DNA of 53,958 bases, from the IMG/VR virus record IMGVR_UViG_3300008448_000114, positions 1 through 53,958 of that record. One strand, given 5' to 3'. Of this stretch, positions 13,901 to 50,843 are shown piece by piece. The stretch is from a virus (Duplodnaviria; Caudoviricetes). The notes under the pieces were generated by a model. It was not told the DNA's origin. It saw nothing but the letters and a program-made list of their open reading frames with translations, and searched no databases. How positions within the stretch are numbered: the stretch's first letter is position 1; each line of letters begins with the position of its first letter. The position numbers and the translations under genes are program-made.

Positions 13901-16900
13901 AACCTTGACATTAGGGAATGCTTTTTTAAGCCTATCTGTAAGCGTTTTAACGGCCTTTTTATTTGCTGTATTTGCAGGTGCGTTGGATTTGTTAATCGCA
14001 TCAATTAAGGCGTTTCTTGCCTCTACTACGCGATTATTTGCTTCTGATATGACAGGAGGTATAACAGGAATAGGAGCTGCGTAATTAGTTCCAGTCATCC
14101 ATTGTTTAACCTTGTCAACAACTTGTTGCCCCATCTGCCTAACAGCACGCTCTTCTCCTTCTGTTACCTGCTGAGCCAGTTCATCCATTAACTGAACTTC
14201 CTGACCAGGATTTATTGTCCTTGTATAGTTCTGTATTACGGGAGTATTGTCGGGGAGTCCTGTTATTTCTTGGACTGCTTGCTGCGCTTGGCTGCCGAAA
14301 TTGCGATTGCGAGCATCTGCTGCCTGCTGCGTGGTTTGCCCGACGCCCCCTTCTCCTTGCCCGATTTTTTGTTGTCCTTGCTCAACTCCCGTAGGTTGTA
14401 TGAGATTGCTTGGTTGACCGCCTTCTTGCTGCGGCCTTGTGCTGATTTCAGTGGCATATTGTTGTGAATTTAAGTAACGTGATTTTAATGTTTCAAGGTC
14501 ATTTAACCTTTGTGTAAGATTTTCTACATCTGCCATCCTGTTAGAGTAAGGCATATCATTCTGTAAGGCAAACTCATAATCTACTTTAGCCTTCTCTATC
14601 AGGTCTTTAGTGTTCTGTATTTTGGTAGCTAAAAACATTTCAGGATTAGATACAATAGACGCTTCATTAGCCCTAGCAGCATTGCTGTTCTTCTCATTAG
14701 CTACGTACAAATCCCTTAATCTGTTAGAGAAACTCATCCTGTCAATAGGAGTCATATCCACCTCTTCAGCTTGAGCTGTTTGCTTTTGTTCTTCTGTCCT
14801 TGCATCAAGGATGCCATTATTCCCTATCATCGTATCAGACAAGCCAAAATAGTCGTAGATAAGCGTCTTCATTTCAGTAGGCTCAATAGCAAACTGCTGT
14901 TCAGCATATTCTACATCATTTAAAGCCTTATCAGCGTTCTGCATATATGTCTCTATTACTTGAGCAGACGCTTCAGGAGACACCTGTCCGTTCTCTACCA
15001 TTGTGCTTATCTCCTTAGCCTTAACAATATTATCAAGAGCTATTGTCCTTTGTTGCATCGTAGTTTTAGGACTAAAGTTCATCGACATAGCCGTAGGAAG
15101 CCATACGTCTCTTACCATCTCATAAACAGGAAGATTAAGCTCGGACTCTTTTATATTGCCGGACTCTACCTCCTGAATGACTTTAAGTATAGGTGCTATG
15201 TTTTCTTTTTGAGTAAGAGCAGATATAACAAAAGCCTCTTCCTTTGTAATGTTAAGTTCTTTGTTTTTGACAAGCTGTTTCCTTATCTCCTCTTGTGCCG
15301 TATTCCTGTTCTTCATATTTTGGGCAAGTTTTGTACCTCCCCTAAATATGGCAGATGTGCCTATCATTGTAATCAACATATCAAGACTCTGCTGTGCCGT
15401 AAATACCGTAGGATTAAACGTAGCATTCGTCATTGTGTTGAACGTGCTTTGCAATATTGCATTGCCTTTATCTGCAACCTCTTCTTCTAAATATTCAAGA
15501 GAGCCTGACTTTAAAACCCTTCCTGTTCTTTTTGCAAATAACCTGGCATACTCTTTAAATGCTTGAGCCCTTGTTTGCGGAGACATGATACGCTTAATCA
15601 AGTCTTTCGTAAGAACAGACTTACCCCTTCTTAATCCAAGAAGAGATGTTTCTCTTGTAATCATTTCGGAGAAAAATTCAATCCCATTATAAAGCTGAGA
15701 ATAAACTATCTGTTCTATCCCCGTTAATCCAGCATCAGCAGCTTCTCTCATGGCTCTACCTGTTCCTGTTGCAGCAAGATACGCATATCCTCCTGCCGGT
15801 CCACCTGCGATAAAAGCTCCTGAAAATGCCAGCATTTGAGGAAGGGCTTCTCCAATTTGTCCTACAATCTTTCCAGCATAACTATCAGCCTCTATATTTG
15901 TTTCAATCCTATTTTTATACTCTCTTATTGATGCTGATACGTTTGCAGCATTAGGGTTGTATCCACTCCAGTCAAAAGATGAAAGCTTATTGCCTGTTTC
16001 GCGAATACCTTCCATCATCCCTCTTATAGTATTTATAGACTTAATAGCAAATATTATATTTTTAGGAGTGCTTTTATTAAGTGTAGTTACATCCTGCGTT
16101 AATGGTGACAGCAAAGGAAAGCTGTACATATTAGTGTCGGTAAACTTGCTATTGTAGTTATCGTCAATCTCATGAAGTCGGTTTAACACAAATTTGCCTC
16201 TTTCGCTAAAAAGAGCACTTTCGTTAAATATCTTTAAACTTCCATTGTAAGAGTTTACCTTCTTTTCAAAGTCAGGCATATTCTCACTCAAAAATGCTTT
16301 AAGTTCTTTTTCAGGGAAAAGACTTTTAGCTCTTTTAGCTACCTGGTCAAGTTTTAATAACTGCTCATTTGTGCTTTCTATAACCTCTGGATTATTCAAC
16401 ATCAAATCCTTACCGGTAGTGTTTAAGAACTCAATATCGTCTGGCTTAAGGTCTGCATATCTATCTTTGTAGTTGCTCCCTTTCTCCATAAGGAACGACT
16501 TAAGTTTAATGTATCTTACAGCATCTCTAACGTTCTTATCATCGCTATTTTCAAGTGCATTGTATCCGTCATTTAACTCTTTAAGCGCAACTGTATATCC
16601 TGACTGATTATTTATCTTAAGTATTCCTGCTTCTATCAATGACTGGCTTATTTCAAGGTCTATTTTAGCGTCTTTAAAACCGCCTATAACTCCTTCTACT
16701 TCAGGAAGGAAATCTTTTAAAGTAGCATATATTGTTTCAATATCCTTGTTGTCAAGTTTTGTTTTAGCGGCATCTACAAGACTTGCCATGCCCTCTATGC
16801 TGTTAAGATACATGCCCTTTCTTCCGCCTGCCTCATCAAGTATCTGTTGCATAGCAGGTATAAGTTGAGGATTCTTTTTTACCTCAAGAGCAAGAACACC

Positions 16901-18337
16901 ATTATTTATCTTTTGAACTTCCTTACCAAGACCAGTACGCACAAGCTCCTTAAGTAAGAACTCGCCACCTTCAGCAGTTTTAGATAGTAGTGTAAATGGT
17001 GATGTCGCAATACCACCAACAGCCTCCAATAATCTTTCATACGCATCATCGTCTGATTTGCTTTGCTGTCTTATTTCTGCCCATTTCTGTTCAAATTCAT
17101 TTGTAAAGGTAGCCGCTGTCAATACCAACTTAAACCAGTCGGGTGTCTTTTTATCAGACATTAATCCTGTATAGGCAGAAGCAACATTATTCATTTGCTT
17201 GTTTCTATCATCTCCAAGCGTTTTTATCTTAATGTCGGCTTCAGCTCTTGTTAATGAACCTTCTGTTACTTGAGTCTCTATGTCAGATACTCGGTCATCA
17301 AAGTTTACAATTAAGTCGTAATCATATTTAATGGATATTGGCGTTACTTTTTTATAGTTTGCTACAGGAATAAACTGCCCTGTAGATTGGTCATATACTC
17401 CATCTATATCTTTAACTTTCTCTACAATCTTAACTTGCTTTCCTTCGCTGTTAAGTACCGGATTACCTTGCTCATCTACCTTGTTGGTAGCCCTATAATA
17501 CATAGGCTTTGCAAAAGGGGCCATTGTATTTGAATTATACCCATACAATGTAAACCCTCTGAATATGTCACCATCTTTTACTTTATCTTTTTCAAAAGCA
17601 TCTACAAATCCTTCAAATGTATTTATGCCTTTTTGATAGGTCTTCTGTGCCATATCCTCGTACTCAGGAACCGTGTCATCTCCCTGGTGAGTAGAAACCC
17701 TCTCCCATAACTCTCCATTCAATAAACGTCTCCATCTTTCAGTAGAAGCCTTTAGATTTCTTTGTACAATATAGTCAGTAGCCTTTACCTGCTTTATAGT
17801 AGGATTATTATCCTTTATGTAAGACATATTGGTATCTTTCTGATATGTCTCATATTCCTTTTTATACTTTTGTTCAATATCTCTTGTGCCTTGTCTTATT
17901 TGTCTATCCCTTCTTCTTTGGCTCTTTTTATCATTGCCTGGGTTGCGCTCAAAGGCCTGCTGTTGTAAAGTTTCTATTTCAGCGTCTTTCTGAACCTTTA
18001 ACTCTTCTGCCTTCTTTAACTTCTCTTCCTCTGTTGGAGGGTCAGGCAACTTCTCATTCTGTATTGTTTGTAAAGCGTCTTTAGGAAGCTCTGTATAAAC
18101 TTTGTCATCAACAACATAACCCTCTGCTTTCGTTTCTGTTGCTACAGGCTTTAATGACTGATAGATGTCCTTTGCCTGCTTGTCCTGCATGAAGGTTTCA
18201 TCTTCTTCTACTTTACCAAACTCTGTATTGGTAATAGAATCTAATTCAAATAAAGACGCTTCCGATGGTCCGACAAGAGGTTCTTGAATATCTTGTAATT
18301 CAGGATTGATGAATTGTTCGTTTAAGTCTTGAGTCAT
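7958..18337 (-). CDS. Giant polyvalent ejection (cargo) protein with zincin metallopeptidase and ADP-ribosyltransferase-like domains
   Basis: 3459 aa. HEFGH motif (13756-13742) followed by ENEALA; YHGS...IGTGEG.QAFGWGLYFT...DGIKY...NYVVFD block (~13350-12570); G/R-rich C-terminus. Follows the tail genes. Confidence 0.8.
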   Translation of the reverse strand: MTQDLNEQFINPELQDIQEPLVGPSEASLFELDSITNTEFGKVEEDETFMQDKQAKDIYQSLKPVATETKAEGYVVDDKVYTELPKDALQTIQNEKLPDPPTEEEKLKKAEELKVQKDAEIETLQQQAFERNPGNDKKSQRRRDRQIRQGTRDIEQKYKKEYETYQKDTNMSYIKDNNPTIKQVKATDYIVQRNLKASTERWRRLLNGELWERVSTHQGDDTVPEYEDMAQKTYQKGINTFEGFVDAFEKDKVKDGDIFRGFTLYGYNSNTMAPFAKPMYYRATNKVDEQGNPVLNSEGKQVKIVEKVKDIDGVYDQSTGQFIPVANYKKVTPISIKYDYDLIVNFDDRVSDIETQVTEGSLTRAEADIKIKTLGDDRNKQMNNVASAYTGLMSDKKTPDWFKLVLTAATFTNEFEQKWAEIRQQSKSDDDAYERLLEAVGGIATSPFTLLSKTAEGGEFLLKELVRTGLGKEVQKINNGVLALEVKKNPQLIPAMQQILDEAGGRKGMYLNSIEGMASLVDAAKTKLDNKDIETIYATLKDFLPEVEGVIGGFKDAKIDLEISQSLIEAGILKINNQSGYTVALKELNDGYNALENSDDKNVRDAVRYIKLKSFLMEKGSNYKDRYADLKPDDIEFLNTTGKDLMLNNPEVIESTNEQLLKLDQVAKRAKSLFPEKELKAFLSENMPDFEKKVNSYNGSLKIFNESALFSERGKFVLNRLHEIDDNYNSKFTDTNMYSFPLLSPLTQDVTTLNKSTPKNIIFAIKSINTIRGMMEGIRETGNKLSSFDWSGYNPNAANVSASIREYKNRIETNIEADSYAGKIVGQIGEALPQMLAFSGAFIAGGPAGGYAYLAATGTGRAMREAADAGLTGIEQIVYSQLYNGIEFFSEMITRETSLLGLRRGKSVLTKDLIKRIMSPQTRAQAFKEYARLFAKRTGRVLKSGSLEYLEEEVADKGNAILQSTFNTMTNATFNPTVFTAQQSLDMLITMIGTSAIFRGGTKLAQNMKNRNTAQEEIRKQLVKNKELNITKEEAFVISALTQKENIAPILKVIQEVESGNIKESELNLPVYEMVRDVWLPTAMSMNFSPKTTMQQRTIALDNIVKAKEISTMVENGQVSPEASAQVIETYMQNADKALNDVEYAEQQFAIEPTEMKTLIYDYFGLSDTMIGNNGILDARTEEQKQTAQAEEVDMTPIDRMSFSNRLRDLYVANEKNSNAARANEASIVSNPEMFLATKIQNTKDLIEKAKVDYEFALQNDMPYSNRMADVENLTQRLNDLETLKSRYLNSQQYATEISTRPQQEGGQPSNLIQPTGVEQGQQKIGQGEGGVGQTTQQAADARNRNFGSQAQQAVQEITGLPDNTPVIQNYTRTINPGQEVQLMDELAQQVTEGEERAVRQMGQQVVDKVKQWMTGTNYAAPIPVIPPVISEANNRVVEARNALIDAINKSNAPANTANKKAVKTLTDRLKKAFPNVKVIMDKKGFQAALKDEAARDLMTKGGVVYGRVLNGDVYLNPDYANYNTPIHEFGHLWLNAAKEIAPEVYNRGRELIRDSEYMDKLQADPLYEGLSTEEMENEALATAIGDRGEQFFNEVQKQGFRNWLRRLIGKLSQYVGIFNLSKVELDLLTLDEFLNRANASLLAGEAVTFNKMSDRDKLFEVKAYHGSPYSFGKFTTEKIGTGEGVQAFGWGLYFTDVKDIAETYRRTLSSSNLLKDGKEVDDELYATIGAYKKGYNEGEGLYKVSVGLYQGFDKNKILKSLEDHKQVIEDTSWTDEIKNDRLNSLEDVINDFKSGRYSIKEGGSLYDVTLHKGKQPSEYNWLEWDKEGFNDIIEKIDKKVDGFKNRFKTEDTPGLKTTGENIYLQLSRTIGSDKEASLLLLENGIDGIKYPAESISRGATSATSRGSNYVVFDENAVEIEQQTQFMARQQEPSFKSQMIDLANAVMQRELSKGRTLEEARTIATSEVSAAVIANATGKFNNNAVQKQIENYVGEAYNERKIAEQAAARQRRISQAFASPSTQAIVTGANQAAQNIANANVGSRTKTTAKQAYDTVLGQVKASIDRMYANGTVPAGVSWIDMMSLAPAIASDAVRASFPAANRQMFEGEDMVNMTSSQWIKNAVSNQIRAIKDVKDRAKKIEDAVKLILKDFQNRYGRGAQLTTGQIKAIIKDLNDNIFSRDDIMTAVDKGATEISKVVEKAYRKKVLADVQKSFDRLETASSTKYSGEYFDKVKAILGFPLSELPDSSASLEELSKLNGHIKDIVALKLGSIQDAIDILNSISPSNQQKIADEHKSLLTKIKDLINKANTQTLSMLDYKKMMELKKAVEDVQERKNNISALTPQQQADIMQQYGVLMLTDLGDINRIIADKEQDIKIETTALVGKIKTELADELSDIRNKIPNGVLYQQFLSFMTSLSDDYLSNLSPANMLSLSSALSQVYDYGNYSNMVYTEYVKALRWKQRDGGYKWGTEIAARRNEITATGLTGFVQNAFRNFARTFTDVEGATPSADAISRNLDLLKITALDYELYNEFDRLNMGYLEREIFGPMAASIDAAMVKTQSKLGQLQTAMIAFSDKSNHATIKKAIGQVLKTYDVSGSILGMSLRNKLREGRAASFLNDISVRMAAIVAHQIDHISNNPAQIIDRVLQRNIFEVKAGEKGVTFMEGTMFDYFTKGGVSFKSLEGNNNKFMDAIAYAALTNGGTTTLKDLTEGKLMDLLTDKQKEGLAGWREHINQNRETFEAAQVIVGNMGASVKNYFPIRVYGDKTVTEVTDPMAYLNGQFSNLGIDKGQTISRSGETGTIDLDANKVLLHNMKALNLMVEVMPFLQQIKGLGDAINDVKTAKDVNEFSAAYLEGVDKNLTERLKANLSHNERVVNDDFGYTFRLMSSAQSFAARVWLISVTRQLFADFPANIGKLTSALGFENKKFGNQILQLLSPKKSRYTTDTGTYKWDDYVEIANLTGSPVYKVMSLYADNFLYEFKKTPEELQRQQRVASWQDMAVKKHGWMSRFEEAFKRITGEYLDHQKFKDERGVYRASNMDAVLQASSVADSFTDRQFSLPSFTRQPLRKQLLAPFLGRGIRNMFDTDKRKISLAKDNPLAILTGFLQGYPTTQHQLYNSYIKLAFSTRSGLSLGKRAEYLTRAVLEGIVPSITYSIFRSYMGVLYLSTAAAVYAAAGDDDDPKAVENKIKELDKKEGWDKYIETIKTGLKAKSKAVNEVIINGIASTAIDPQTSFFWRTALGMAAFYMYKEGATERLLTMDKRQRKKAMMQMRQKEASWFNMYNVRPIEIYGGKTYDEAIRAFYSAEEPTKGWEDLVNSFSGISAIHGLSTTVNDIRRYYAASGEDTKVDSKETAIAAGLTAYGYIFANMMIGGKFGFFLNMVSGDLRNIGTKILKEQRPEVVQEERKQEKKTRRGFTMFFEPGESGGKKGSRGGSGRGGGSGRGRGGSGRGGGGR
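14263..14457 (-). CDS. Small basic protein nested out of frame in the giant gene
   Basis: MPLKSAQGRSKKAVNQAISYNLREL...GKPRSRQQMLAIAISAAK, with leader TAAATTCACAACAAT-ATG resembling the capsid gene leader. Confidence 0.6.
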   Translation of the reverse strand: MPLKSAQGRSKKAVNQAISYNLRELSKDNKKSGKEKGASGKPRSRQQMLAIAISAAKRSKQSKK

Positions 18338-40513: not shown

Positions 40514-40912
40514 TTACTTGTCCTTACGAGGCAAATACCACAACTGAGGCCACATACGTACCGTTCCGGAGCTGATAAATGTAATACGCCAGTTCGTACA
40601 TACAGGAGTAATCTTACTGATAAATGCTGTATTTGTAACCGCATTTGTAAGGGCAATGCTGTCAGTAGAGATATAGTTCACCCCATCAAGGCTTTGAGCA
40701 AACACTACCTTGCCGGCAGCAGTACCTGATACGCGACTCAGCACAGGTTGAAATATAACTCCATTCAAAGAACTGGACAGCGTAAGGTTTACAACAGCCG
40801 TATCTGCGTTGATTAAGCTGTCAACACCTACAAATGGTACTGAAATAGCTGCCTGGCTATAACAGAAATTAATTGCAAAAAGTAATACAATAGTGGAAAA
40901 AATCTTTTTCAT
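40514..40912 (-). CDS. Exported beta-sandwich protein
   Basis: Signal peptide MKKIFSTIVLLFAINFCYSQ; TATATTTG box at 40934-40927. Confidence 0.65.
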   Translation of the reverse strand: MKKIFSTIVLLFAINFCYSQAAISVPFVGVDSLINADTAVVNLTLSSSLNGVIFQPVLSRVSGTAAGKVVFAQSLDGVNYISTDSIALTNAVTNTAFISKITPVCTNWRITFISSGTVRMWPQLWYLPRKDK

Positions 40913-40955
40913 TTAAAATGTTTTTACAAATATAATGGAAAATACTTTACCAAAT

Positions 40956-41010
40956 AAAAGTCCCCCCAAGTAGAAACAAGGAGGGAACAGCTTACTTTTT
41001 TATAGACACA
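40956..41010 (-). ncRNA. Cassette F: stand-alone sRNA candidate
   Basis: Full promoter TTTG-N20-TACATTTG, ~25-nt arm, hairpin TCCCTCC-TT-G-TTTCTA-C-TT-GGGGGGA, CTTTT. Confidence 0.55.
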
Positions 41011-41012
41011 AT

Positions 41013-41076
41013 CAAATGTACAACAAAAGTGTTGATAAAACAAATTTGGATAAAATATTTTCTGTTACTAACTTTG
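41013..41076. promoter_or_regulatory. Back-to-back promoters sharing palindrome CAAATTTG
   Basis: Plus: TTTG(41045-48)-N20-TAACTTTG(41069-76). Minus: TTTG(41044-41)-N20-TACATTTG(41020-13). Confidence 0.7.
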
Positions 41077-41081
41077 GTACA

Positions 41082-41415
41082 TGGTATTAAAGCAATTTTA
41101 TATCAAGACACCGAACCCTCTCAGGTTCGTACAGCTTTCCAGAGATAGAGATTTATCCTATCAATCTAAAGCTCAGAAGTCGGATGGTAGCTGTCACCAC
41201 AACATAGACAGTAAGATTTCTCCGATAGTGTCGCAAATGGTTCAGAAACATAAAGACCCTTAGAGGTAACAGCTGTTAAGGATAGAGTAACCCTTACAGG
41301 ATATCAGGGCTGTTACGAAGGTGTACTAACCACGGTTAGCAACGTACGGTCTAAGGCATAAATTCTGAACTAATGTAAACGAAATTCATCCCGTATCTAA
41401 GGGGATACTATGCGC
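41082..41415 (+). ncRNA. Candidate ~330-nt multibranch ncRNA
   Basis: Nested stems GTTCAGAA/TTCTGAAC, AGACC/GGTCT, GTAACAGC/GCTGTTAC, TCGGA/TCCGA, AGCTTT/AAAGCT, CGAACC/GGTTCG. Confidence 0.55.
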
Positions 41416-42019
41416 CTACACCAATACCGTATCTAATAACACCCCATCAAAGCTGTTATTAATACCATCACCCGGTTAGCAGCATCACTACACATAAACC
41501 CCCTAAATTCACCACCCCTCCGCACACATAACAGCTACCCCACACATTAGGTTTTTGTAAAAAAACCGGGTAGGTACGCTGTTAAACAATGGGATTGTTG
41601 GAATTTAAGTGAAATACATGAAGGTTCAGGATAACCCCCTCCCCTCTACCAACATTCCGAATCGGGGAAACGGATTCCGCAGACTGTGTACCTCGTTTTG
41701 CTTCGTTTCGGTTATGCTTCCCCGTTAGCTTCATGCTACTTTGTTAGCTGAAAAAAATCAAACTGATTTTGTATGGCTGATATGTCATGCGGGATGTTTT
41801 GTTATCCCCCCCGCCTAATTAGTACTTTCGTTCTTTTGCATCTCATTAATTTATTAGTGTTTTATTTTACGGGATGTTATGCCATGTCAGGAAGTTATTT
41901 TTTTATGTTTGTTTATTGGATAAATACAGCTAATTATTTTAGTATTATTTGCTAAATAATTTAGTTAGATATTTTCTAATAAAACAGCTTAAAATTTAGA
42001 AAACATTTAATGGCTTTTA

Positions 42020-42052
42020 TTTGGAATGTAGTACATATACTCCTTATCTTTG
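42020..42052 (+). promoter_or_regulatory. Early promoter
   Basis: TTTG-N21-TATCTTTG. Confidence 0.75.
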
Positions 42053-42089
42053 TATCGTTAATTTAATCACTCAAAACAAAACAAATTTT

Positions 42090-42557
42090 ATGAGCACACA
42101 AAAAAACGCAGTTAATCAGGAGCAAACAATTAGCGAAGGTAAAAAAGTAATTAACTTGACGGGCAAAGATGGTAAATTATCGGGCAAAGGTTTGACAGCT
42201 AAACAGGAACGCGAAGCAAAAAAAGCCCTCCGCAAAGAAACGAACGAAGCCAGGAAGGAAGCCATAAAGGAGCGCAAAGATGAACAAAAAACGTTATCTT
42301 ATCAATTTAAGGAGCTTCAAAAGTACGGGCAAACATACGCGGATAAATTAAGCAAAGAAACGGGAGCAAATGTTACCCTTGCCAATATTCAGGCGTTAAA
42401 ATATCGGGACTTTTTGCCTTTCCTTACCATGTCCGAAGATTATTCAAACACTGCGAACGGCTGGACCTTTGCCCGTCTGTTGTCTGTTGTTGCCCGTTAT
42501 TACAGAAACGAAGCAAAAAAGCAAATTACAGATTCTATCTTATTGGATATAGAATAA
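42090..42557 (+). CDS. First early gene, K/E-rich hypothetical protein
   Basis: Start moved to ATG 42090 (MSTQKN), downstream of the promoter and A/C-rich leader. Confidence 0.7.
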   Translation: MSTQKNAVNQEQTISEGKKVINLTGKDGKLSGKGLTAKQEREAKKALRKETNEARKEAIKERKDEQKTLSYQFKELQKYGQTYADKLSKETGANVTLANIQALKYRDFLPFLTMSEDYSNTANGWTFARLLSVVARYYRNEAKKQITDSILLDIE

Positions 42558-42563
42558 GACAAG

Positions 42564-43443
42564 GCACGCCCGTATACGTAAAAACGTACAGATAAAATTT
42601 TGCTTATCTACGGGTGCAATATGTCGACAAAAAATGAAGATAGTCGACAAGCATAGGCAAAAAATAACCATACATGAGGGTAAAAAATTCAGTGAATTTC
42701 CTCAGGTAGCTTCACAAGTTGTGAACGGGCAAAGATATGTCAATGTCATCTTCAGTTCTTTGACATAACAGAATAAAGTAAGGGTATTAAGTACTTATGT
42801 ATGAACGGGTAAAAGTTCAGTGAACTCCGTTTATATTCGGCAAAGTTTGCCCAATAATCTATTTAATATCTGTAAAGCATAAATTTACTTTATTTAGCGT
42901 TAAGGGTTAACTACATTCTATAAAAACATAATTTAATTATGTTCAGGAAAGGAAAGGTATTTTTATACCTTATCAATCTTTGTGGTAAGTCGATACCAAG
43001 ACCCAAACCTTAAACAAGTTTGCTAATTGATTCGCTCCGGTCGTTTGACTTTTATAGATTAAAGATTATTTGTAGTTAACACAAAGTAGCCCTGCATGAT
43101 GCTGATGCAGTAAAGTTTTTCTGTTTAGGCGAAGGTGCATGAAAGTGTACCTATAAACGAACTATAAAACAGATGTAAGGATTGCCAAAAATATATCTCG
43201 ATTTATCATTTATATATCCCCACACACCGGACAGCCGGAAGAGTCTGCATAAAACAGATTCGACAATTAAGGCATGAAAGTACTTTGCTACTTCGATTTA
43301 TTCATTTAGTAAAGGCGTGACTACTTTCATAAAGGTACAAATGTCTGCAAAAAAACAACCAATATTTAAGTAATGGCAAGGGCAAAGTTTGCCCTATACC
43401 TATACTCGCCATGATATTAAACAAATGGTATTGCTTAAATATT
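42564..43443 (+). ncRNA. Large structured ncRNA or ncRNA array
   Basis: ORF-free and densely paired: long-range 9-14-bp stems, a kissing loop, a GAAA tetraloop and five AGT-triloop hairpins. Confidence 0.65.
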
Positions 43444-43458
43444 TTTAATAATAACAAA

Positions 43459-43514
43459 GGGAAATGGCATGGTGCATGCAGTAATGTAGTCCGGTTCGAT
43501 TCCGGGCTTTCCCC
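43459..43514 (+). ncRNA. Mini tRNA-like element lacking an anticodon
   Basis: GGGAAA/TTTCCC acceptor-like stem, GTCCGG-TTCGATT-CCGGGC T-arm, GCA-TGG-TGC mini D-arm, TGCA-GTAA-TGTA in place of the anticodon arm. Confidence 0.6.
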
Positions 43515-43542
43515 TATTTATTCACTCTAAACACTAAACACA

Positions 43543-43728
43543 ATGAAAGGGACAAAAGTATGCTCGGCAAAGCCCGGCAAAAATGTACGCATGAACGTAC
43601 ACACAAAGCGTGAAGCCATACAGCTCATGCAGAAACTGACAGCACTCGGAAAGGACATAAAAACTTATGTCCGCGAAGTGCAAATCAGACAAGAAATCAA
43701 ATTAATAAACCTAAACATTCATCCATGA
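43543..43728 (+). CDS. Hypothetical early protein
   Basis: 61 aa with an A/C-rich leader. Confidence 0.6.
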   Translation: MKGTKVCSAKPGKNVRMNVHTKREAIQLMQKLTALGKDIKTYVREVQIRQEIKLINLNIHP

Positions 43729-43829
43729 AAAAAAGAAAATGTACTGACGCTGAATTACAGCGCAGACTGGAATTTTGCGTAGGAGTAATAATATCATTAT
43801 TAGCCATCGCAATATTGCAAAATATATAA
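43725..43829 (+). CDS. 34-aa single-TM peptide
   Basis: MKKRKCTDAELQRRLEFCVGVIISLLAIAILQNI, ATGA overlap with the upstream gene. Confidence 0.5.
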   Translation: MKKRKCTDAELQRRLEFCVGVIISLLAIAILQNI

Positions 43830-43838
43830 ATGTAGTAT

Positions 43839-44141
43839 ATGGAAGGATATAATAAATGGGCAAATGAAATGAATGTAGGTGCATACTATGTACCGCCCAC
43901 ACCTCCGGCAAATGGTCACTACTTTGACGCAAAAGTTTATACTAAATCTAAAAAACAAAATATAAGCATCGTAAAACGCTTATTAAAGCTACTCAGCTTT
44001 TTTCTGTTCACTCTCATCATGTCATCCTGCTCACGTTACGTTAATTCCGGAGGTGGAGGATGCGGAGTATGGCATCCAAAGAAATACTCCGGAGCTGCGC
44101 CTAAGATGCGCTCAGGGGCGAAACTTGTATCCATTCACTAA
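43839..44141 (+). CDS. Membrane protein / possible lipoprotein
   Basis: Internal KRLLKLLSFFLFTLIMSSC lipobox-like segment. Confidence 0.5.
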   Translation: MEGYNKWANEMNVGAYYVPPTPPANGHYFDAKVYTKSKKQNISIVKRLLKLLSFFLFTLIMSSCSRYVNSGGGGCGVWHPKKYSGAAPKMRSGAKLVSIH

Positions 44142-44153
44142 ATAAAACTTAAT

Positions 44154-44333
44154 ATGAAAAAGATTTTAACAGCGGGCATAATGCCATTAGTTCCGTTCGT
44201 ATTCGGGATATTCCTGTTAGCATTTTCGCTAAACCCATTTAAGTCTTATGTATTCTGGGCAGTCACTTACGTGTACTTAGTTGTATGCCTAGTAATTGTT
44301 CTAGTAATGCAGACAGAAGAAAACAGTGTTTGA
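44154..44333 (+). CDS. 59-aa two-TM membrane protein
   Basis: Hand translation MKKILTAGIMPLVPFVFGIFLLAFSLNPFKSYVFWAVTYVYLVVCLVIVLVMQTEENSV. Confidence 0.6.
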   Translation: MKKILTAGIMPLVPFVFGIFLLAFSLNPFKSYVFWAVTYVYLVVCLVIVLVMQTEENSV

Positions 44334-44341
44334 GTGAGGAT

Positions 44342-44374
44342 AGCCGGTAACAGGTAACGCTGACCGGCTTTTTT
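44342..44374 (+). terminator. Intrinsic terminator
   Basis: AGCCGGT...ACCGGCT-TTTTT. Confidence 0.7.
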
Positions 44375-44408
44375 ATTTTACACTATTGTAAACTTTCAAT
44401 TTACATTT

Positions 44409-44645
44409 ATGAAAATGATACCATGCAAACGATGCTCCGGACCAATGCCGGAACTACGCCTGACTAGATGCGGATTCAATACGTGTATTACATGTGCATC
44501 TACGCAGAAGGTAGGTTGCATCCCCGTAACTAATCATAAGACGGGCAATACTATTCAGGTCGTACCAATGGAGACAGCTAATAGAGTAAACCGCCTGGCT
44601 CAACGCAAAGGGTATGGCGTAATGTCAGGAATGAAACACAATTAA
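44409..44645 (+). CDS. DksA/TraR-type C4 zinc-finger protein
   Basis: CKRC...MPELRL......CITC. Confidence 0.6.
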   Translation: MKMIPCKRCSGPMPELRLTRCGFNTCITCASTQKVGCIPVTNHKTGNTIQVVPMETANRVNRLAQRKGYGVMSGMKHN

Positions 44646-44656
44646 ATCAATCTACA

Positions 44657-44800
44657 ATGAGACAGATTAAAAAGCATTTCGATACGCAGAGACAAGCGGA
44701 GAACTATTTGAATATACTCTACGGAGTGTACGACTATGTTAAACTCATCCGCTTTCCAATGCTCACTGAATCAGGCACTTATATATTTGAAGTTCACTAA
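44657..44800 (+). CDS. 47-aa hypothetical protein
   Basis: Hand translation MRQIKKHFDTQRQAENYLNILYGVYDYVKLIRFPMLTESGTYIFEVH. Confidence 0.6.
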   Translation: MRQIKKHFDTQRQAENYLNILYGVYDYVKLIRFPMLTESGTYIFEVH

Positions 44801-44826
44801 TTAATTAACCAATAAATCAAATCACA

Positions 44827-45297
44827 ATGACAAAGCAAGAAAAACTCGCTGTTAAAAGCAGCCTGCTGTCTATAAAGGACAGCTTATTCAGAGACGCATG
44901 GGAAGATATTGTATCTGACCATCCGTATGTAGAACAAGACGACGACGACATCGAAGATGATGTGTTAGTTATAGCAGATGCACCGGAGAAACCATCTTGG
45001 AAAATAGGTGAGGAGAAGATTCAGCGTAGGCGTAACGGATTTAGCTTTAATGACATGGAGAGTGCAATAGATGAGTTAGTGAGACTATGGGGCGTGGAAT
45101 CATTTACTCAACCTCTAATGTCATATACTCTAGGCGAAGAAGAAGGCATGGGGCTGTACTTTAAATCTAAAGATACATTCGTGCGTAGTAGCGATGCGTC
45201 TCTAGGTATCGTCAATACTAATGACGAAGACGAACAAGCATACCTTCTGCATATAGGATATAAAAGATTCTCCGATATAATTATAAACGATAACTAA
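44827..45297 (+). CDS. Hypothetical early protein
   Basis: 156 aa; C-terminus similar to the next gene. Confidence 0.65.
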   Translation: MTKQEKLAVKSSLLSIKDSLFRDAWEDIVSDHPYVEQDDDDIEDDVLVIADAPEKPSWKIGEEKIQRRRNGFSFNDMESAIDELVRLWGVESFTQPLMSYTLGEEEGMGLYFKSKDTFVRSSDASLGIVNTNDEDEQAYLLHIGYKRFSDIIINDN

Positions 45298-45346
45298 TTA
45301 CTCTAAACAAACGTGGAGTCACCACGATAAAAACTGAACATTCGAT

Positions 45347-45736
45347 ATGTCACAAGTAACATTAGACCGCAGCACGCTCAAAGCAATGTACAATGCCGAC
45401 CAAAACGGAGACGTACAATCCATCATCCTTAACGCTGTCCCTGACCTGCTATCAAAGCAAGGCTTCGTGCTTGACATTGACTCGGGTTCACTCTCACAAT
45501 TCGTTGATACGCTTGATATCTCCGATTGCAATGACACGAGGCTCATCGAGGTAGTCAATCGTACTGCATCCGGAGACGAAGCAGGCAAAGGTTTCTACCT
45601 GCACAAGCAAGGAGGCGACGTCGTATGGTACGCATCACCTACTAAGAAAGGTAAGGCAGTGCGTCTAGTTCCGGTGTTTGCAAACAGCGAAGCAGAGCAT
45701 CACCTCGTTGACCTCGGATACCTTCCGCTTGGTTAA
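45347..45736 (+). CDS. Hypothetical early protein
   Basis: 129 aa; GDEAGKGFYL...HLVDLGY. Confidence 0.65.
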   Translation: MSQVTLDRSTLKAMYNADQNGDVQSIILNAVPDLLSKQGFVLDIDSGSLSQFVDTLDISDCNDTRLIEVVNRTASGDEAGKGFYLHKQGGDVVWYASPTKKGKAVRLVPVFANSEAEHHLVDLGYLPLG

Positions 45737-45764
45737 TTAGGTAGCACTAAAATGACATCATCAT

Positions 45765-45792
45765 GGGAGGGGCGTAACAACTCCTCCCTTTT
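45765..45792 (+). terminator. Intrinsic terminator
   Basis: GGGAGGGG-CGTAACAA-CTCCTCCC-TTTT. Confidence 0.7.
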
Positions 45793-45818
45793 ACTAATCT
45801 CTCAACAAATCAAACATT

Positions 45819-47423
45819 ATGTTTACATTACGTACAGAAGCCATCATCGAGAACGCAGCACACTCTATCTACGGAGCAGAACTTCCAGGCATTGAACACG
45901 TGCACCTAAGGGGTGCTATGTTCGGCTACTACAAAGCAGGTAGCGGAGCAACAATAATAAACGGCAGGTGGCAGGACAAGGGACTGCAACTAATAAAGCC
46001 TGGCAAGTTTATCAAGATGATTAACAAGGATATGTCCGACGATAAGGTAGAGCGTATGGTTAACCGCATCAAGTCATACGTATCAACCTTTGGCGACGAG
46101 CATGGCGAAGGTATCGAAGCTCCGTTCTTCAGTGTCGCATCGGGAGAGATGATAGGGCACTACTACCTCGACAAGAACTACGCTGAAAGCGATGGAAATT
46201 TGGGCAATAGCTGTATGCGTAGGCCTGAATGTCAGCCGTATTTCAAGCTATACGAACAGAATCAAGATGCTGTCAGTATGCTAGTGTTACGTAACAGCGA
46301 ACACATTATCGTAGCACGTGCGCTGCTGTGGTTCGATGGTACAGATACCTACATGGATACTATCTACCGGATAGCTGACAAGTTCGAGACAAGCATGATT
46401 GAGTACGCCTGCCGTCATGGTATATACTACAAGCGTCAGCAGTCGTGTCATTACTTCGCATTCGATATGTTCAACCGCGAAAAGATAGAGCCTAAGATTC
46501 TCAACATACATATCGACAAGGTAGATGTGGTAAAATGGGAGTTCCCGTGGCTGGATACGCTGATGTATATGTACATGAACAGCGGTAAATACTATCTGAC
46601 TAACTGCCCTACTCCAGGAATCAACGGAACAATATTGCAACTGCGTAGCACAAGCGGTAGTATATACGACCACAATATCAACGACGACAGACTACTGCAC
46701 ATGGAGACAGCGTTCACCTTATTGTACGGAGGTAAGCGTAGCCCATCGGTCACTAAGTTCTTAGAAGATAGAGAGGCGTTAGTAGAAGCTGTCGAAGGAG
46801 ATGAAAATAGTATCGTAAGCAACTGGAATGGTAGCTTCCTTGCAACCATTATCAAAGAGCCGAAAGACATACCATTAGGATACAAGCGTCTGTTCATAAA
46901 CAATCAGCCGGAGGAAGGACAGGTAGAGATTAACGGAGAGTTCTACGATGAAGATGATTGTGTTATAGATATACATGGCAACTGGGTGCATATTGACGAT
47001 GCAGTAGAGGTAGATGGAGACTGGTATCATCATGAAGACGGTAGAATCAGGTACTCTGAACACTACGGAAGACATTACCACGAAGATGATGTTACGTATG
47101 TGGAAAGCAGAGACGACTACTATCCTAATGATGATACTGTATGGGATGAATACACTAACGAGAATATCCTTGAGAGATACGCGGTATATGTACAAGACTA
47201 TGGATATATACACGAAGATGATGTACACGAGGTAGCCGTAGAGGTTAATGGAGAATACCACAAGACAGAGAGATGCTTCCAATGTGAGATAACAGACGAG
47301 TGGTATCTGAACGATGAAAAGTGCGAGCTTCCTGATGGTAGGGTGGTATGCCAAGAAGCGTATGACGAATGGATTGAAGAGAACGATACTGACGAACAAG
47401 AAGTAGAAGAAGAGCAACCTTAA
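45819..47423 (+). CDS. Protein with SCM...ARALLW...MD.IY domain (PcfJ/GNAT-like) and acidic beta repeats
   Basis: GNLGNSCMR, IVARALLW, YMDTIY, repeated DD.V......WYH units. Confidence 0.6.
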   Translation: MFTLRTEAIIENAAHSIYGAELPGIEHVHLRGAMFGYYKAGSGATIINGRWQDKGLQLIKPGKFIKMINKDMSDDKVERMVNRIKSYVSTFGDEHGEGIEAPFFSVASGEMIGHYYLDKNYAESDGNLGNSCMRRPECQPYFKLYEQNQDAVSMLVLRNSEHIIVARALLWFDGTDTYMDTIYRIADKFETSMIEYACRHGIYYKRQQSCHYFAFDMFNREKIEPKILNIHIDKVDVVKWEFPWLDTLMYMYMNSGKYYLTNCPTPGINGTILQLRSTSGSIYDHNINDDRLLHMETAFTLLYGGKRSPSVTKFLEDREALVEAVEGDENSIVSNWNGSFLATIIKEPKDIPLGYKRLFINNQPEEGQVEINGEFYDEDDCVIDIHGNWVHIDDAVEVDGDWYHHEDGRIRYSEHYGRHYHEDDVTYVESRDDYYPNDDTVWDEYTNENILERYAVYVQDYGYIHEDDVHEVAVEVNGEYHKTERCFQCEITDEWYLNDEKCELPDGRVVCQEAYDEWIEENDTDEQEVEEEQP

Positions 47424-47449
47424 TCATTAAAAATCAAAACAATTAAACA

Positions 47450-48718
47450 ATGGTAGAACAATTATTCAAGGACATCCTGAGTACGCAGTCGCACTCAGGT
47501 CATGTCGAACGCATGACGCAACTTATCGCAGACTACGCCACATACTTCGGAGCAGATGTACGTATCGAGAGCAACAATATCTACGTCACCAAAGGTATCC
47601 CACTTCCTAATGGCTATCCATGTATCGTATCCCATACCGATACTGTCCACGCAATAGTACCCGACGACGAGTTCAGGGTAGGCTATGACCACGACAACCG
47701 CATCATATACGGATACAATCCTATCAAGCGCGACTTCACCGGCATAGGAGGTGATGACAAGGTAGGCATCTACATCGCCCTCGCTGCTGTCCGTGACTTC
47801 ACAAGTATCAAGGCCTGCTTCTTTCGAGACGAGGAGATAGGTTGCGTAGGTAGTGGAGAGGCCGACTTATCCTTCTTCTCCGACTGCATGTATATCCTGC
47901 AATGCGACCGCAAAGGTAACAAGGACTTTGTCAATCGTATATCATCAACGCCTATATCCTCCAAAGAGTTCCAGGATGACGTAGCTAACATCATCAAGAA
48001 CTATGGCTATGACTTCCACGACGGTGGTATGACAGATGTGTACAAGTTAACAACTCGGCAGGTAGGTATCAGCACAGCCAATATGAGCTGTGGCTATTAC
48101 AACCCTCACTCATCAGACGAACTTATATCTGTCGATGATGTTGACAACACACTGCGTATGGTATATGAGATACTGTGGACACTAGACAAGAGGTACGAGC
48201 ATAAGGTAGAGACTCCGGTATATACTAATAAGAAATACTACTACGACTATGACGATTGGTACACGCCTAAGTTTAATACGCCATCTGCCAAGATAGATAC
48301 TATCGACTCAGTTGATGACTTCGGAGACTACTTAAGTATGCAGGATATGCCGACGGATGAAGACATGAAGAAGATGTCTTATGATGATTTCTACTGCCAT
48401 GCCTTAGCTGTCATGTTCGGATATGAGTACACAGGCAATGGCATCTATTCATTTGAGTCAGGAAGGATTACAAGCTATACATCACTGGCTAAGATAGACA
48501 TTAAGGAGCTAGAGAAAGAGATAGATGACAGCGCTATATGGGAGGCGGTAGAGTTCGCGTCATTCTGCGAAGAGCAAAGGGATATATTGATGGAAGATGA
48601 TAAGCCTAAGTCTGAGTGTAACTGTCAGTCATGTGGTACGGGAATAACTAAAGACCAGCAGAGATGGTATGATGGTGTGTGCGAGGGTTGCTTCCGTAGC
48701 TACCATACGATTCTGTAG
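47450..48718 (+). CDS. M20/M28-clan zinc peptidase with C-terminal Zn ribbon
   Basis: SHTDTVH, GGDDKVG, DEEIG, QCDR, GYYNPHS; CQSC...CEGC. Confidence 0.8.
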   Translation: MVEQLFKDILSTQSHSGHVERMTQLIADYATYFGADVRIESNNIYVTKGIPLPNGYPCIVSHTDTVHAIVPDDEFRVGYDHDNRIIYGYNPIKRDFTGIGGDDKVGIYIALAAVRDFTSIKACFFRDEEIGCVGSGEADLSFFSDCMYILQCDRKGNKDFVNRISSTPISSKEFQDDVANIIKNYGYDFHDGGMTDVYKLTTRQVGISTANMSCGYYNPHSSDELISVDDVDNTLRMVYEILWTLDKRYEHKVETPVYTNKKYYYDYDDWYTPKFNTPSAKIDTIDSVDDFGDYLSMQDMPTDEDMKKMSYDDFYCHALAVMFGYEYTGNGIYSFESGRITSYTSLAKIDIKELEKEIDDSAIWEAVEFASFCEEQRDILMEDDKPKSECNCQSCGTGITKDQQRWYDGVCEGCFRSYHTIL

Positions 48719-48730
48719 CAGTGTTCACTC

Positions 48731-49000
48731 TCACGATTTTTTGGTTGACTTCCCGTTAGCGCCATTACGAGCCCGGTTTTTGTGTTTTGATTCCATAACG
48801 AGCTTACCATTCTTGGTATGGCTCATATCTTTATTATCACCATTACCGTACGTTCCGGCTTCGCGATTAGCTTTATTCAGCTTGGAGCGATATGCTACAC
48901 GTTCAGGAGCTTTGTTATACAGCGCATCGTACGCTGCCTTACGCTTCCTTGCTTCGGGATTCTTATCGTAATACTTTTGAGTTCTTGACTTCTTAACCAT
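48731..49000 (-). CDS. 89-aa basic protein with degenerate HNH-like motif
   Basis: Start ATG 49000 after TATATTTG-TGT; GNGDNKDMSH...KNRARN; fits the gap between two plus-strand genes. Confidence 0.65.
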   Translation of the reverse strand: MVKKSRTQKYYDKNPEARKRKAAYDALYNKAPERVAYRSKLNKANREAGTYGNGDNKDMSHTKNGKLVMESKHKNRARNGANGKSTKKS

Positions 49001-50636: not shown

Positions 50637-50640
50637 AAGC

Positions 50641-50703
50641 ATTGCCGCTTGTAATTATTATTAATCGTTAGTGAGTAATTGGTTACTTAAAGGGGGCGGC
50701 AAT
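50641..50703 (+). other. Long irregular hairpin
   Basis: ATTGCCGC(50641-48)/GCGGCAAT(50696-703) enclosing GTAATTATTA/TAATTGGTTAC. Confidence 0.5.
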
Positions 50704-50705
50704 AT

Positions 50706-50798
50706 CCCGGAAGGCGTATGGAAAGCCGACAATGAGGGTGAACGTGGCCCGTCTGTAAACTCAGTAAATTGTATCAGGTTCGACTCCTGATTCCGGGG
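50706..50798 (+). ncRNA. tRNA-like element with expanded, non-canonical anticodon arm
   Basis: CCCGGAA/TTCCGGG, TCAGG-TTCGACT-CCTGA, GGC-GTATGGAAA-GCC, and ACAAT/ATTGT enclosing 34 nt. Confidence 0.6.
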
Positions 50799-50843
50799 CA
50801 TTTTGGTACTTATAGTACCAATACAAGTCAAAAAATAAACTAA

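Follow-up and report, generated by a model that had tools for sequence, protein, structure and literature searches.

Virus record IMGVR_UViG_3300008448_000114 of IMG/VR (Duplodnaviria; Caudoviricetes) is a linear sequence of 53,958 bases, estimated to be about 75% complete, which was analysed at its full length and is referred to here as the window. Virion genes, including an open reading frame (ORF) for a protein of 3,459 amino acids (aa; 7958-18337), occupy the minus strand from 1 to 40912, and plus-strand genes run from 42090 onwards. Two ORF-poor stretches, 40913-42089 and 42558-43542, lie between these gene blocks and are separated only by a plus-strand gene encoding a 155-aa protein (42090-42557 in the ORF list). 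Directly downstream of this gene, the second stretch contains five plus-strand hairpins (H1 to H5) with the triloop AGT (AGU in RNA), and H1-H4 belong to a larger conserved fold. Judged from sequence and its conservation, H1-H4 are most likely repeated docking sites for one RNA-binding factor.

The host is probably a member of the Bacteroidota, because the genome carries the promoter pattern of this phylum, a BT4734-like_N domain and a match to a Tenacibaculum phage. The domain is found in one plus-strand protein and, among 14 control genomes, occurred only in Bacteroides thetaiotaomicron; the Tenacibaculum phage is the best phage match of the 3,459-aa protein. Seven sequencing runs, with the labels lake water, freshwater and 'fungus metagenome', contain at least half of the sampled words. 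Relatives of the locus were obtained by scans guided by the 155-aa protein. The guided metagenome scan gave seven loci, of which L021 duplicates the IMG/VR contig L019 and L020 stops 33 bases past the gene; usable downstream DNA is provided by L019 and by five metagenome loci (L022-L026). The window and these relatives make seven loci in only five distinct lineages, since L022 and L023, and likewise L024 and L025, are nearly the same in this region. Use of a 534-aa protein as scan guide yielded no relatives.

The hairpins were described in a first-pass annotation of the window, and the sequences and positions given there are all exact. H1 (42675-42704; TGAGG-GTAAA-AAATTC-AGT-GAATTT-CCTCA) is a bulged hairpin with a lower stem of 5 bp (9 bp in relatives), a 5' bulge GTAAA at 42680-42684, an upper stem of 6 bp and its AGT loop at 42691-42693. 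It is followed by the simple hairpin H2 (42711-42725; TTCACA-AGT-TGTGAA), which has a stem of 6-7 bp and its loop at 42717-42719. Similarly, the bulged hairpin H3 (42800-42835; TATGAACGG-GTAAA-AGTTC-AGT-GAACT-CCGTTTATA), with a lower stem of 9-10 bp containing one G.T pair, a GTAAA bulge at 42809-42813, an upper stem of 5 bp and a loop at 42819-42821, precedes the simple hairpin H4 (42839-42851; GGCAA-AGT-TTGCC), with 5 bp and a loop at 42844-42846. H5 (43380-43394; GGGCAA-AGT-TTGCCC) lies further downstream and is extendable to 7 bp at 43379-43395. The annotated pairing of a bulged with a simple hairpin does occur twice: H1 and H2 form unit A, and H3 and H4 the homologous unit B. Each two-hairpin unit measures about 57 nt, and the units stand in tandem, about 128 nt apart, on one putative transcript.

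Such a concentration of AGT hairpins is far beyond chance. The genome contains 85 perfect triloop hairpins with a stem of at least 5 bp, among which the loop is AGT in six and ACT in two; five of the six AGT copies fall within 42685-43395, with a single further one in the remaining 53 kb. When the 985 non-coding bases at 42558-43542 were shuffled 2,000 times with dinucleotides preserved, AGT hairpins numbered 0.03 on average and never more than 2, versus 5 observed; for triloop hairpins of any loop, the mean was 1.57 and the maximum 7, versus 8 observed. Further, when both strands of the window were searched at full length and with filters off, using a covariance model of the bulged hairpin, H3 scored 55.2 bits and H1 52.6 bits; nothing else exceeded 13.2 bits (E 1.8).

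The first-pass annotation also held that the stems vary while loop and bulge are fixed, which is borne out for H1-H4 in the relatives and fails for H5. H1 and H2 are present in all seven loci and H3 and H4 in six, L019 having unrelated sequence in place of the latter two. The loop is AGT in 26 of 26 instances of H1-H4 (seven loci, five lineages), although it is carried by at least four different stems of H2, two of H1, two of H3 and three of H4. The upper stem of H1 is AAATTC, or AAATAC/GTATTT in L026, and its lower stem is TGAGG/CCTCA, AAAGG/CCTTT (L024 and L025) or TAAGG/CCTTG. In H2, where four of seven pairs show compensatory changes (helix 9 of the fold), the stems are TTCACA, TTTCAAC, TTCAAAC and TTCATGC/GCGTGAA, the last of which, found in L024 and L025, has an internal U.G pair. 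The upper stem of H3 is AGTTC, or ATTGC/GCAAT in L024 and L025. H4 has the stem GGCAA, or GGTAA/TTACC in L024 and L025, and a weakened 4-bp form in L022, L023 and L026 that agrees with the change 42851 C>A in sequencing runs X5, X8 and X10. The bulge reads G-Y-A-A-A, mainly its second letter varying (T or C); in H3 it is GCAAA in L022, L023 and L026, and in L024 and L025 a six-letter GCAAAA with one extra A. Contigs from four other public runs contain the same compensatory H2 variants (run X5), and none of the 40 differences listed for these contigs, beyond which there are 67 more, falls in a loop or bulge. The annotation would have been refuted by loops that are not conserved in homologues; the loops of H1-H4 are conserved there and so withstand this test, and their stems covary. 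An invariant loop and bulge on variable stems is the appearance that reiterated sites for one binder should have.

H5 behaves differently. In the window it is identical to H4 at 14 of 14 bases, and in L022, L023 and L026 its stem is kept, but 15-16 further bases take the place of the AGT loop; no hairpin of this type occurs in L019, L024 or L025, so that the AGT loop of H5 is confined to the lineage of the window. The number of AGT hairpins accordingly varies from two in L019 to four in most relatives and five only in the window. Outside this region, the related loci contain one additional AGT hairpin (L025, 695-707).

H1-H4 are embedded in a conserved fold of about 350 nt (42558-42905). Directly after the stop codon of the 155-aa gene, a three-way junction (42567-42616, plus strand; helices 2-4) consists of an outer stem around two hairpins, three of the eight outer-stem pairs being compensatory. 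It is followed by a plus-strand hairpin TGTCGAC/GTCGACA with a conserved 14-nt loop (42622-42649; helix 5), in which all cells are paired and three of seven pairs are compensatory; in runs X5 and X8, its changes 42627 A>C and 42628 C>A occur together with 42644 T>G and 42643 G>T. The second domain (42776-42890, plus strand), a long outer stem around H3 and H4 with 41 pairs in all, is absent from L019. Across the five sequences available for the first domain, 19 of 58 pairs are compensatory and 94.8% of cells are paired; across the four of the second domain, the figures are 5 of 41 pairs and 96.9%. None of 500 shuffles of the first domain reached any of five measures, and with partners shifted by 1-3 columns only 31-43% of cells were paired and 0-4 pairs were compensatory; for the second domain, none of 500 shuffles reached four of the measures and 29 of 500 reached the fifth. 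Both structures were predicted from the very sequences tested and are therefore favoured in the shuffle and slid controls. DNA identity to the relatives is 85-90% in the first domain versus 74-85% in the adjacent gene.

Protein-coding and mobile-element explanations of this conservation were considered and rejected. A 44-aa ORF over H1 and H2 (42634-42768) loses its start codon in L019 and has its frame broken by the indels in H2, and neither the ORF list of the window nor the alignment of the relatives contains a conserved ORF across 42558-42905. A repetitive extragenic palindromic or transposon-end type of element does not fit either, there being only two units and no transposase, and the GTAG between H1 and H2 not being conserved. 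No Rfam family was matched at gathering score in the window or the six related loci, and searches of 40800-43700 and 42660-42860 at E up to 10 returned chance-level matches only (rli45, mir-3, tracrRNA, Plastid-rpl20 and others). Similarly, none of 50,697 phage records matched the 985 bases in blastn. A pattern scan of IMG/VR for the bulge-plus-loop motif gave 18 loci, of which 17 are coding matches or matches by chance; the hairpin is formed only in L007, which shares its contig with L019. The literature searched contained no account of a phage AGU triloop.

Several lines of evidence place the structure on the plus strand. The predicted pairs include 32 G.U cells versus 1 A.C cell, and alifold energies are lower on the plus than on the minus strand both for the first domain (-47.7 versus -44.7 kcal/mol) and for the second (-22.7 versus -14.4 kcal/mol), although the alifold structures were derived from the plus strand, which inflates the G.U count and biases the energy comparison likewise. 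In addition, a U.G pair stands in the middle of the otherwise Watson-Crick H2 of L024 and L025, all 26 instances have G as the central loop base on the plus strand, covariation of the lower stems extends across an asymmetric bulge, and the T-loop of a tRNA-like element further downstream reads on the plus strand. A plus-strand transcript is favoured because of the G.U pairs, a promoter-like site, a terminator-like hairpin and this tRNA-like element. We consider it very probable that the stretch forms a real, conserved RNA structure on the plus strand.

The same observations bear on two explanations at the level of DNA. The first, that the hairpins are extruded as promoters for a virion RNA polymerase (vRNAP), as in phage N4, or act as single-strand replication-origin signals, is very unlikely. 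The hairpins do match the description of N4 early promoters (PMC4496689) in having stems 5-7 bp long and of variable sequence and conserved 3-nt loops with a central purine, and the 3,459-aa protein has the size of the N4 vRNAP. However, sequence-level searches of Pfam, PHROGs, NCBIfam and PDB revealed no RNA-polymerase similarity in this protein, and tblastn of its residues 900-2300 against the 50,697 phage records gave no match to an N4-like phage. Since N4 promoters act on the template strand, a purine on the plus strand would imply leftward transcription, antisense to the 155-aa gene and away from the plus-strand genes. Hairpins 25-27 nt apart would also be odd as promoters, host-type promoters are present, and the replication genes (DnaA_C-like and BT4734-like_N) are 10 kb away. 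What fits RNA is the abundance of G.U pairs, together with covariation both in the lower stems across the bulge and in further helices that have no AGT loop. The 3,459-aa ORF (minus strand) gave a weak ART-PolyVal hint at residues 1663-1714, below cut-off, and local matches to phage proteins that are hypothetical, structural or annotated as NUDIX or methyltransferase; from these, its product resembles a polyvalent virion protein more than an RNA polymerase of the N4 type.

The second, in which the hairpins are double-stranded operators for a dimeric phage regulator, we regard as highly improbable. All five are perfect palindromes about a central base, and GGGCAAA, which makes up half of H4 and of H5, is clustered, with 9 of its 12 genome occurrences in 42161-43858. 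However, the half-sites differ among copies and change symmetrically among lineages, so that pairing is kept and sequence is not. Further, a duplex palindrome has no preferred strand, yet the central base is G on the plus strand throughout, and covariation of the lower stems across an asymmetric bulge would not be expected of operators.

The position of the hairpins suggests what they might do. A promoter-like site of the Bacteroidota type (42020-42052, plus strand), with TTTG at -33, a 21-nt spacer and TAtcTTTG at -7, lies 38 nt before the ATG of the 155-aa gene; it was called with the -33/-7 consensus of Bacteroidota promoters. Matches to this pattern number seven in the genome versus 1.67 expected, a count reached in none of 100 shuffles, and include a divergent pair at 41013-41076. 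Both L019 and L025 retain the -7 element of the 42020-42052 site. Of six TAnnTTTG sites on the plus strand between 40900 and the end, only two have TTTG 20-21 nt upstream, those at 41045-41076 and 42020-42052, and the next partial plus-strand site after 42052 is at 48972. Genes from 43543 to 48718 therefore probably need transcription across the hairpins and across a terminator-like hairpin at 43092-43125 (plus strand), which was found by a simple scan and consists of CTGCAT-GATGCTG-ATGCAG followed by a T-rich run. The latter is kept in L022-L026, its stem covarying to CATCAT/ATGATG in L024 and L025, and is absent from L019.

A third element of this region is a tRNA-like mini-element of 48-57 nt (43459-43514, plus strand), which ends 28 nt before the next ORF (43543). 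It has an acceptor-like stem of 6-7 bp, one short hairpin and a T arm with the loop TTCGATT, and is conserved with covariation in all relatives that reach 43459-43514. The acceptor-like stem alternates between GGGAAAG/CTTTCCC and GAGAAAG/CTTTCTC, and the T stem between CCGG, CCAGG/CCTGG and AGGG/CCCT. ARAGORN found no tRNA or transfer-messenger RNA (tmRNA) in the window or the six relatives, and a 22-base pattern of the element had no exact match in the genomes of 185,579 bacterial and archaeal species, one each. The element may be a processing signal of the RNase P/Z type. A second T-arm-like sequence, GGTTCGACTCC with flanks ATCAG/CTGAT, occurs at about 50732-50809, in a gap between small ORFs at 50637-50843.

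Taken together, we tentatively propose that the hairpins act in cis to control read-through or processing into the downstream early genes, a possibility to which we would give clearly less than an even chance. A plus-strand transcript would start at the host-type promoter at 42020-42052 and carry both the 155-aa gene and the hairpins. Each of H1-H4 would display an AGU triloop, to which H1 and H3 would add a GNRA-like G-Y-A-A-A bulge 5-6 bp below the loop, and a single factor, for which small basic phage proteins, a host RNA-binding protein and the transcribing RNA polymerase are candidates, would recognize the reiterated hairpins. The factor-loaded nascent RNA could then set the passage of transcription, or of intact RNA, past 43092-43125 into the downstream plus-strand genes, with the tRNA-like element marking a processing site. 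The fold, its conservation, the invariance of loop and bulge and the strand bias are observed; transcription of the stretch, binding by a factor and action in cis are the parts of this proposal that we infer. Such a mode of action may be likened to that of the phage nut and put elements; the lambda nut/boxB site with its N protein is a related antitermination system. A cis role is favoured over a sponge and over a purely structural RNA because the two units lie between a promoter-like and a terminator-like site and the downstream genes have no recognizable promoter of their own.

A number of points weigh against this proposal. L019 keeps unit A without unit B and without the terminator-like hairpin, from which it follows that unit B and the terminator are dispensable and that unit A does not solely serve that terminator. 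The scan for terminators found five sites versus 2.8 +/- 1.8 in shuffles, and the plus-strand derivation of the alifold structures, given above, favours the strand on which the proposal depends. Sites of the nut/put type are normally single per operon and do not come as a tandem pair. The 155-aa protein has a poor structural model and no match to an RNA-binding family in Pfam, PHROG or NCBIfam. The promoter rules of the host were assumed, and weaker downstream promoters were possibly missed. Finally, none of the sequencing runs found to carry the stretch is an RNA run.

The first-pass annotation interpreted the hairpins as a multivalent sponge for a host protein, possibly a defence factor. The pattern of reiterated sites on which this rested stands, with AGT in every instance and covarying stems, but no result supports a host protein or a defence function as its target. 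In such a scheme, an early transcript ending at the terminator-like hairpin would accumulate, and its four to five AGU sites would titrate a host RNA-binding protein in trans; a variant in which the protein contacts loop and bulge separately, as iron regulatory proteins (IRPs) contact the iron-responsive element (IRE), is also possible. Several sites with an invariant loop on variable stems, a promoter that looks early, and stable structures that bracket the stretch (the three-way junction at one end, 42567-42616, and the terminator-like hairpin at the other, 43092-43125) would suit a sponge. The gain of a fifth AGT hairpin by the lineage of the window, identical to H4 at 14 of 14 bases, looks as if the number of sites were selected, and in H1 (CAGUG) the closing C-G pair is separated from the 5' bulge by 5 bp, the IRE spacing. 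However, the sites are few, only two in L019, and the RNA would remain attached to an mRNA unless processed. No known binder and no link to defence were found, a search of 201 bases with the IRE models drew a blank even at E up to 10, and H4, H5 and the H2 of the window are closed by A-U. We consider a trans-acting sponge doubtful, though conceivable, and the position of the hairpins, in the transcript of the first early gene and before the terminator-like hairpin, fits a cis role at least as well. More specifically, an IRE-style bipartite early RNA that captures a host protein (apo-aconitase, or a defence or stress factor) and is freed by RNase P-type processing at the tRNA-like element appears rather improbable.

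It is also unlikely, if slightly less so than this last version, that hairpins and GNRA-like bulges alike serve as modules in the folding of a larger, self-folding non-coding RNA, comparable to ornate large RNAs or ribozymes, to which no protein binder is dedicated. The location of the hairpins inside a large covarying fold would agree with such an architecture, as would the adjacent tRNA-like element and the sequence G-Y-A-A, which fits the GNRA pattern and might thus make tertiary contacts. A second large conserved fold upstream (41121-41420), with 15 of 71 predicted pairs compensatory, points the same way. However, four identical triloops would not be expected from four different tertiary contacts, the whole unit B domain is dispensable in L019, and no large-RNA family of Rfam was matched in the window or the six related loci.

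The upstream fold is the conserved core of a second ORF-free stretch (41083-41805), which follows the plus-strand promoter-like site at 41045-41076 and precedes a plus-strand terminator-like hairpin at 41766-41795. It was derived from four sequences that are 73-96% identical. No Rfam match was obtained for 41083-41805, which is a candidate for a second large non-coding RNA.

The 155-aa protein is predicted to be all-helical, with a long helix rich in Lys and Glu. It has 20 homologues with 53-100% identity, including an identical copy on a separate contig of 64,282 bases, and belongs to no family in Pfam, PHROG or NCBIfam. Its AlphaFold2 model is poor (mean predicted local distance difference test score, pLDDT, of 61), and the one lead from the Atlas, DUF5824 with a score of 0.88, was sub-threshold. 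No relative of the protein was found in contigs of bacterial and archaeal genomes; together with the null search with the 22-base tRNA-like pattern, this revealed neither a prophage copy nor a host source of the tRNA nor a lead to the host.

Other features lie downstream of the conserved fold. A block of about 175 bases outside the fold (42906-43080) is present in the window and absent from L022-L026, and contigs in runs X8 and X10 join 42905 directly to 43081. The segment 43130-43345 is near-identical between the window and L022, L023 and L026, while the neighbouring gene is only about 74-82% identical in DNA, which suggests strong constraint or recent exchange. A plus-strand hairpin CCAT/ATGG, CCCT/AGGG in relatives, with a conserved 12-nt loop (43409-43428) was aligned by eye, one pair changing on both sides. 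The copies of GGGCAAA in 42161-43858 comprise all six of those on the plus strand of the genome and three of the six on the minus strand; besides the two that are halves of H4 and H5, some are Gly-Lys codons within the 155-aa gene, and a copy directly after H2 is conserved in all relatives.

Since the tRNA-like signal and the second large fold are also located here, about 2.2 kb at the early/late junction of this genome appear to be devoted to RNA. To our knowledge, phages have yielded few structured non-coding RNAs, and hardly any are understood in phages of Bacteroidota or of lake bacteria. The hairpins have a clear, testable grammar, in which the AGU loop and the GNRA-like bulge are invariant, the stems are free and the unit is present twice. 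If they act in cis, they would represent control of the nut/put kind in a host group from which no such element has been described; if they act in trans, they would constitute a new protein-sponge RNA. An IRE-style capture, if true, would mean that a phage sponge employs a recognition code known to date from iron regulation.

Comparison with known systems gives partial likenesses only. Unlike a tRNA, the element at 43459-43514 has no full cloverleaf, its only parts being the acceptor-like stem, one short hairpin and the T arm. The early promoters of phage N4 are described as template-strand DNA hairpins with stems of 5-7 bp and conserved 3-nt loops, whose stem bases are free as long as they pair (PMC4496689). 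The hairpins reported here share with them the stem length, an AGT loop with a central purine on the plus strand and a location in a phage early region. However, N4 promoters require a T7-like vRNAP and have flanks conserved to +1, whereas no fixed sequence is apparent by eye around the five hairpins, and their leftward orientation as promoters would oppose the rightward neighbouring genes. In CsrB and RsmZ, a short loop motif is repeated on several hairpins, which sequester the one protein that recognizes it, CsrA (PMC5027483; PMC6546359). Here the loop is AGU and not GGA, there are only 2-5 sites, and the element is attached to a coding region; no CsrB/Rsm family of Rfam was matched in the window at gathering score or in 40800-43700 at E up to 10.

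The IRE offers a parallel in the recognition elements themselves. IRP1/apo-aconitase contacts loop and bulge separately, several IREs may occur in one 3' untranslated region, and the six-base loop CAGUGH, in which C1 pairs with G5, amounts to an AGU pseudo-triloop plus one unpaired base (PMC3048577). Bacterial aconitases, in turn, are reported to bind IRE-like CAGUG hairpins (PMC3912134). Like the IRE, H1, H3 and the H2 of relatives have an AGU triloop with a C-G closing pair (CAGUG) on a variable stem, and H1 has an unpaired 5'-strand bulge below a 5-bp upper helix. Unlike the IRE, the base after G pairs here, giving a true triloop without an unpaired sixth loop base, and the bulge is the five-base G-Y-A-A-A, whereas the IRE has a single C (or a UGC/C loop) five pairs below its loop. 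In addition, the corresponding spacing in H3 is only 4 bp, the closing pair of H4, H5 and the window's H2 is A-U, and the setting is a phage of a presumed Bacteroidota host. The Rfam models IRE_I and IRE_II gave no match in the window at gathering score, nor at E up to 10 in 40800-43700 or 42660-42860.

In arrangement, there is a likeness to putL and putR of phage HK022. Each of these two related RNAs measures about 70 nt and has two bulged stem-loops; they are located downstream of early promoters and upstream of terminators and act in cis on the transcribing polymerase (PMC9378689). The present units differ from them in being placed in tandem in one transcript, in their much shorter stems and in their invariant loops. 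The resemblance to put is one of layout in the sequence, a two-hairpin unit that occurs twice and lies between promoter-like and terminator-like sites, and a put-like activity of the units would be putative.

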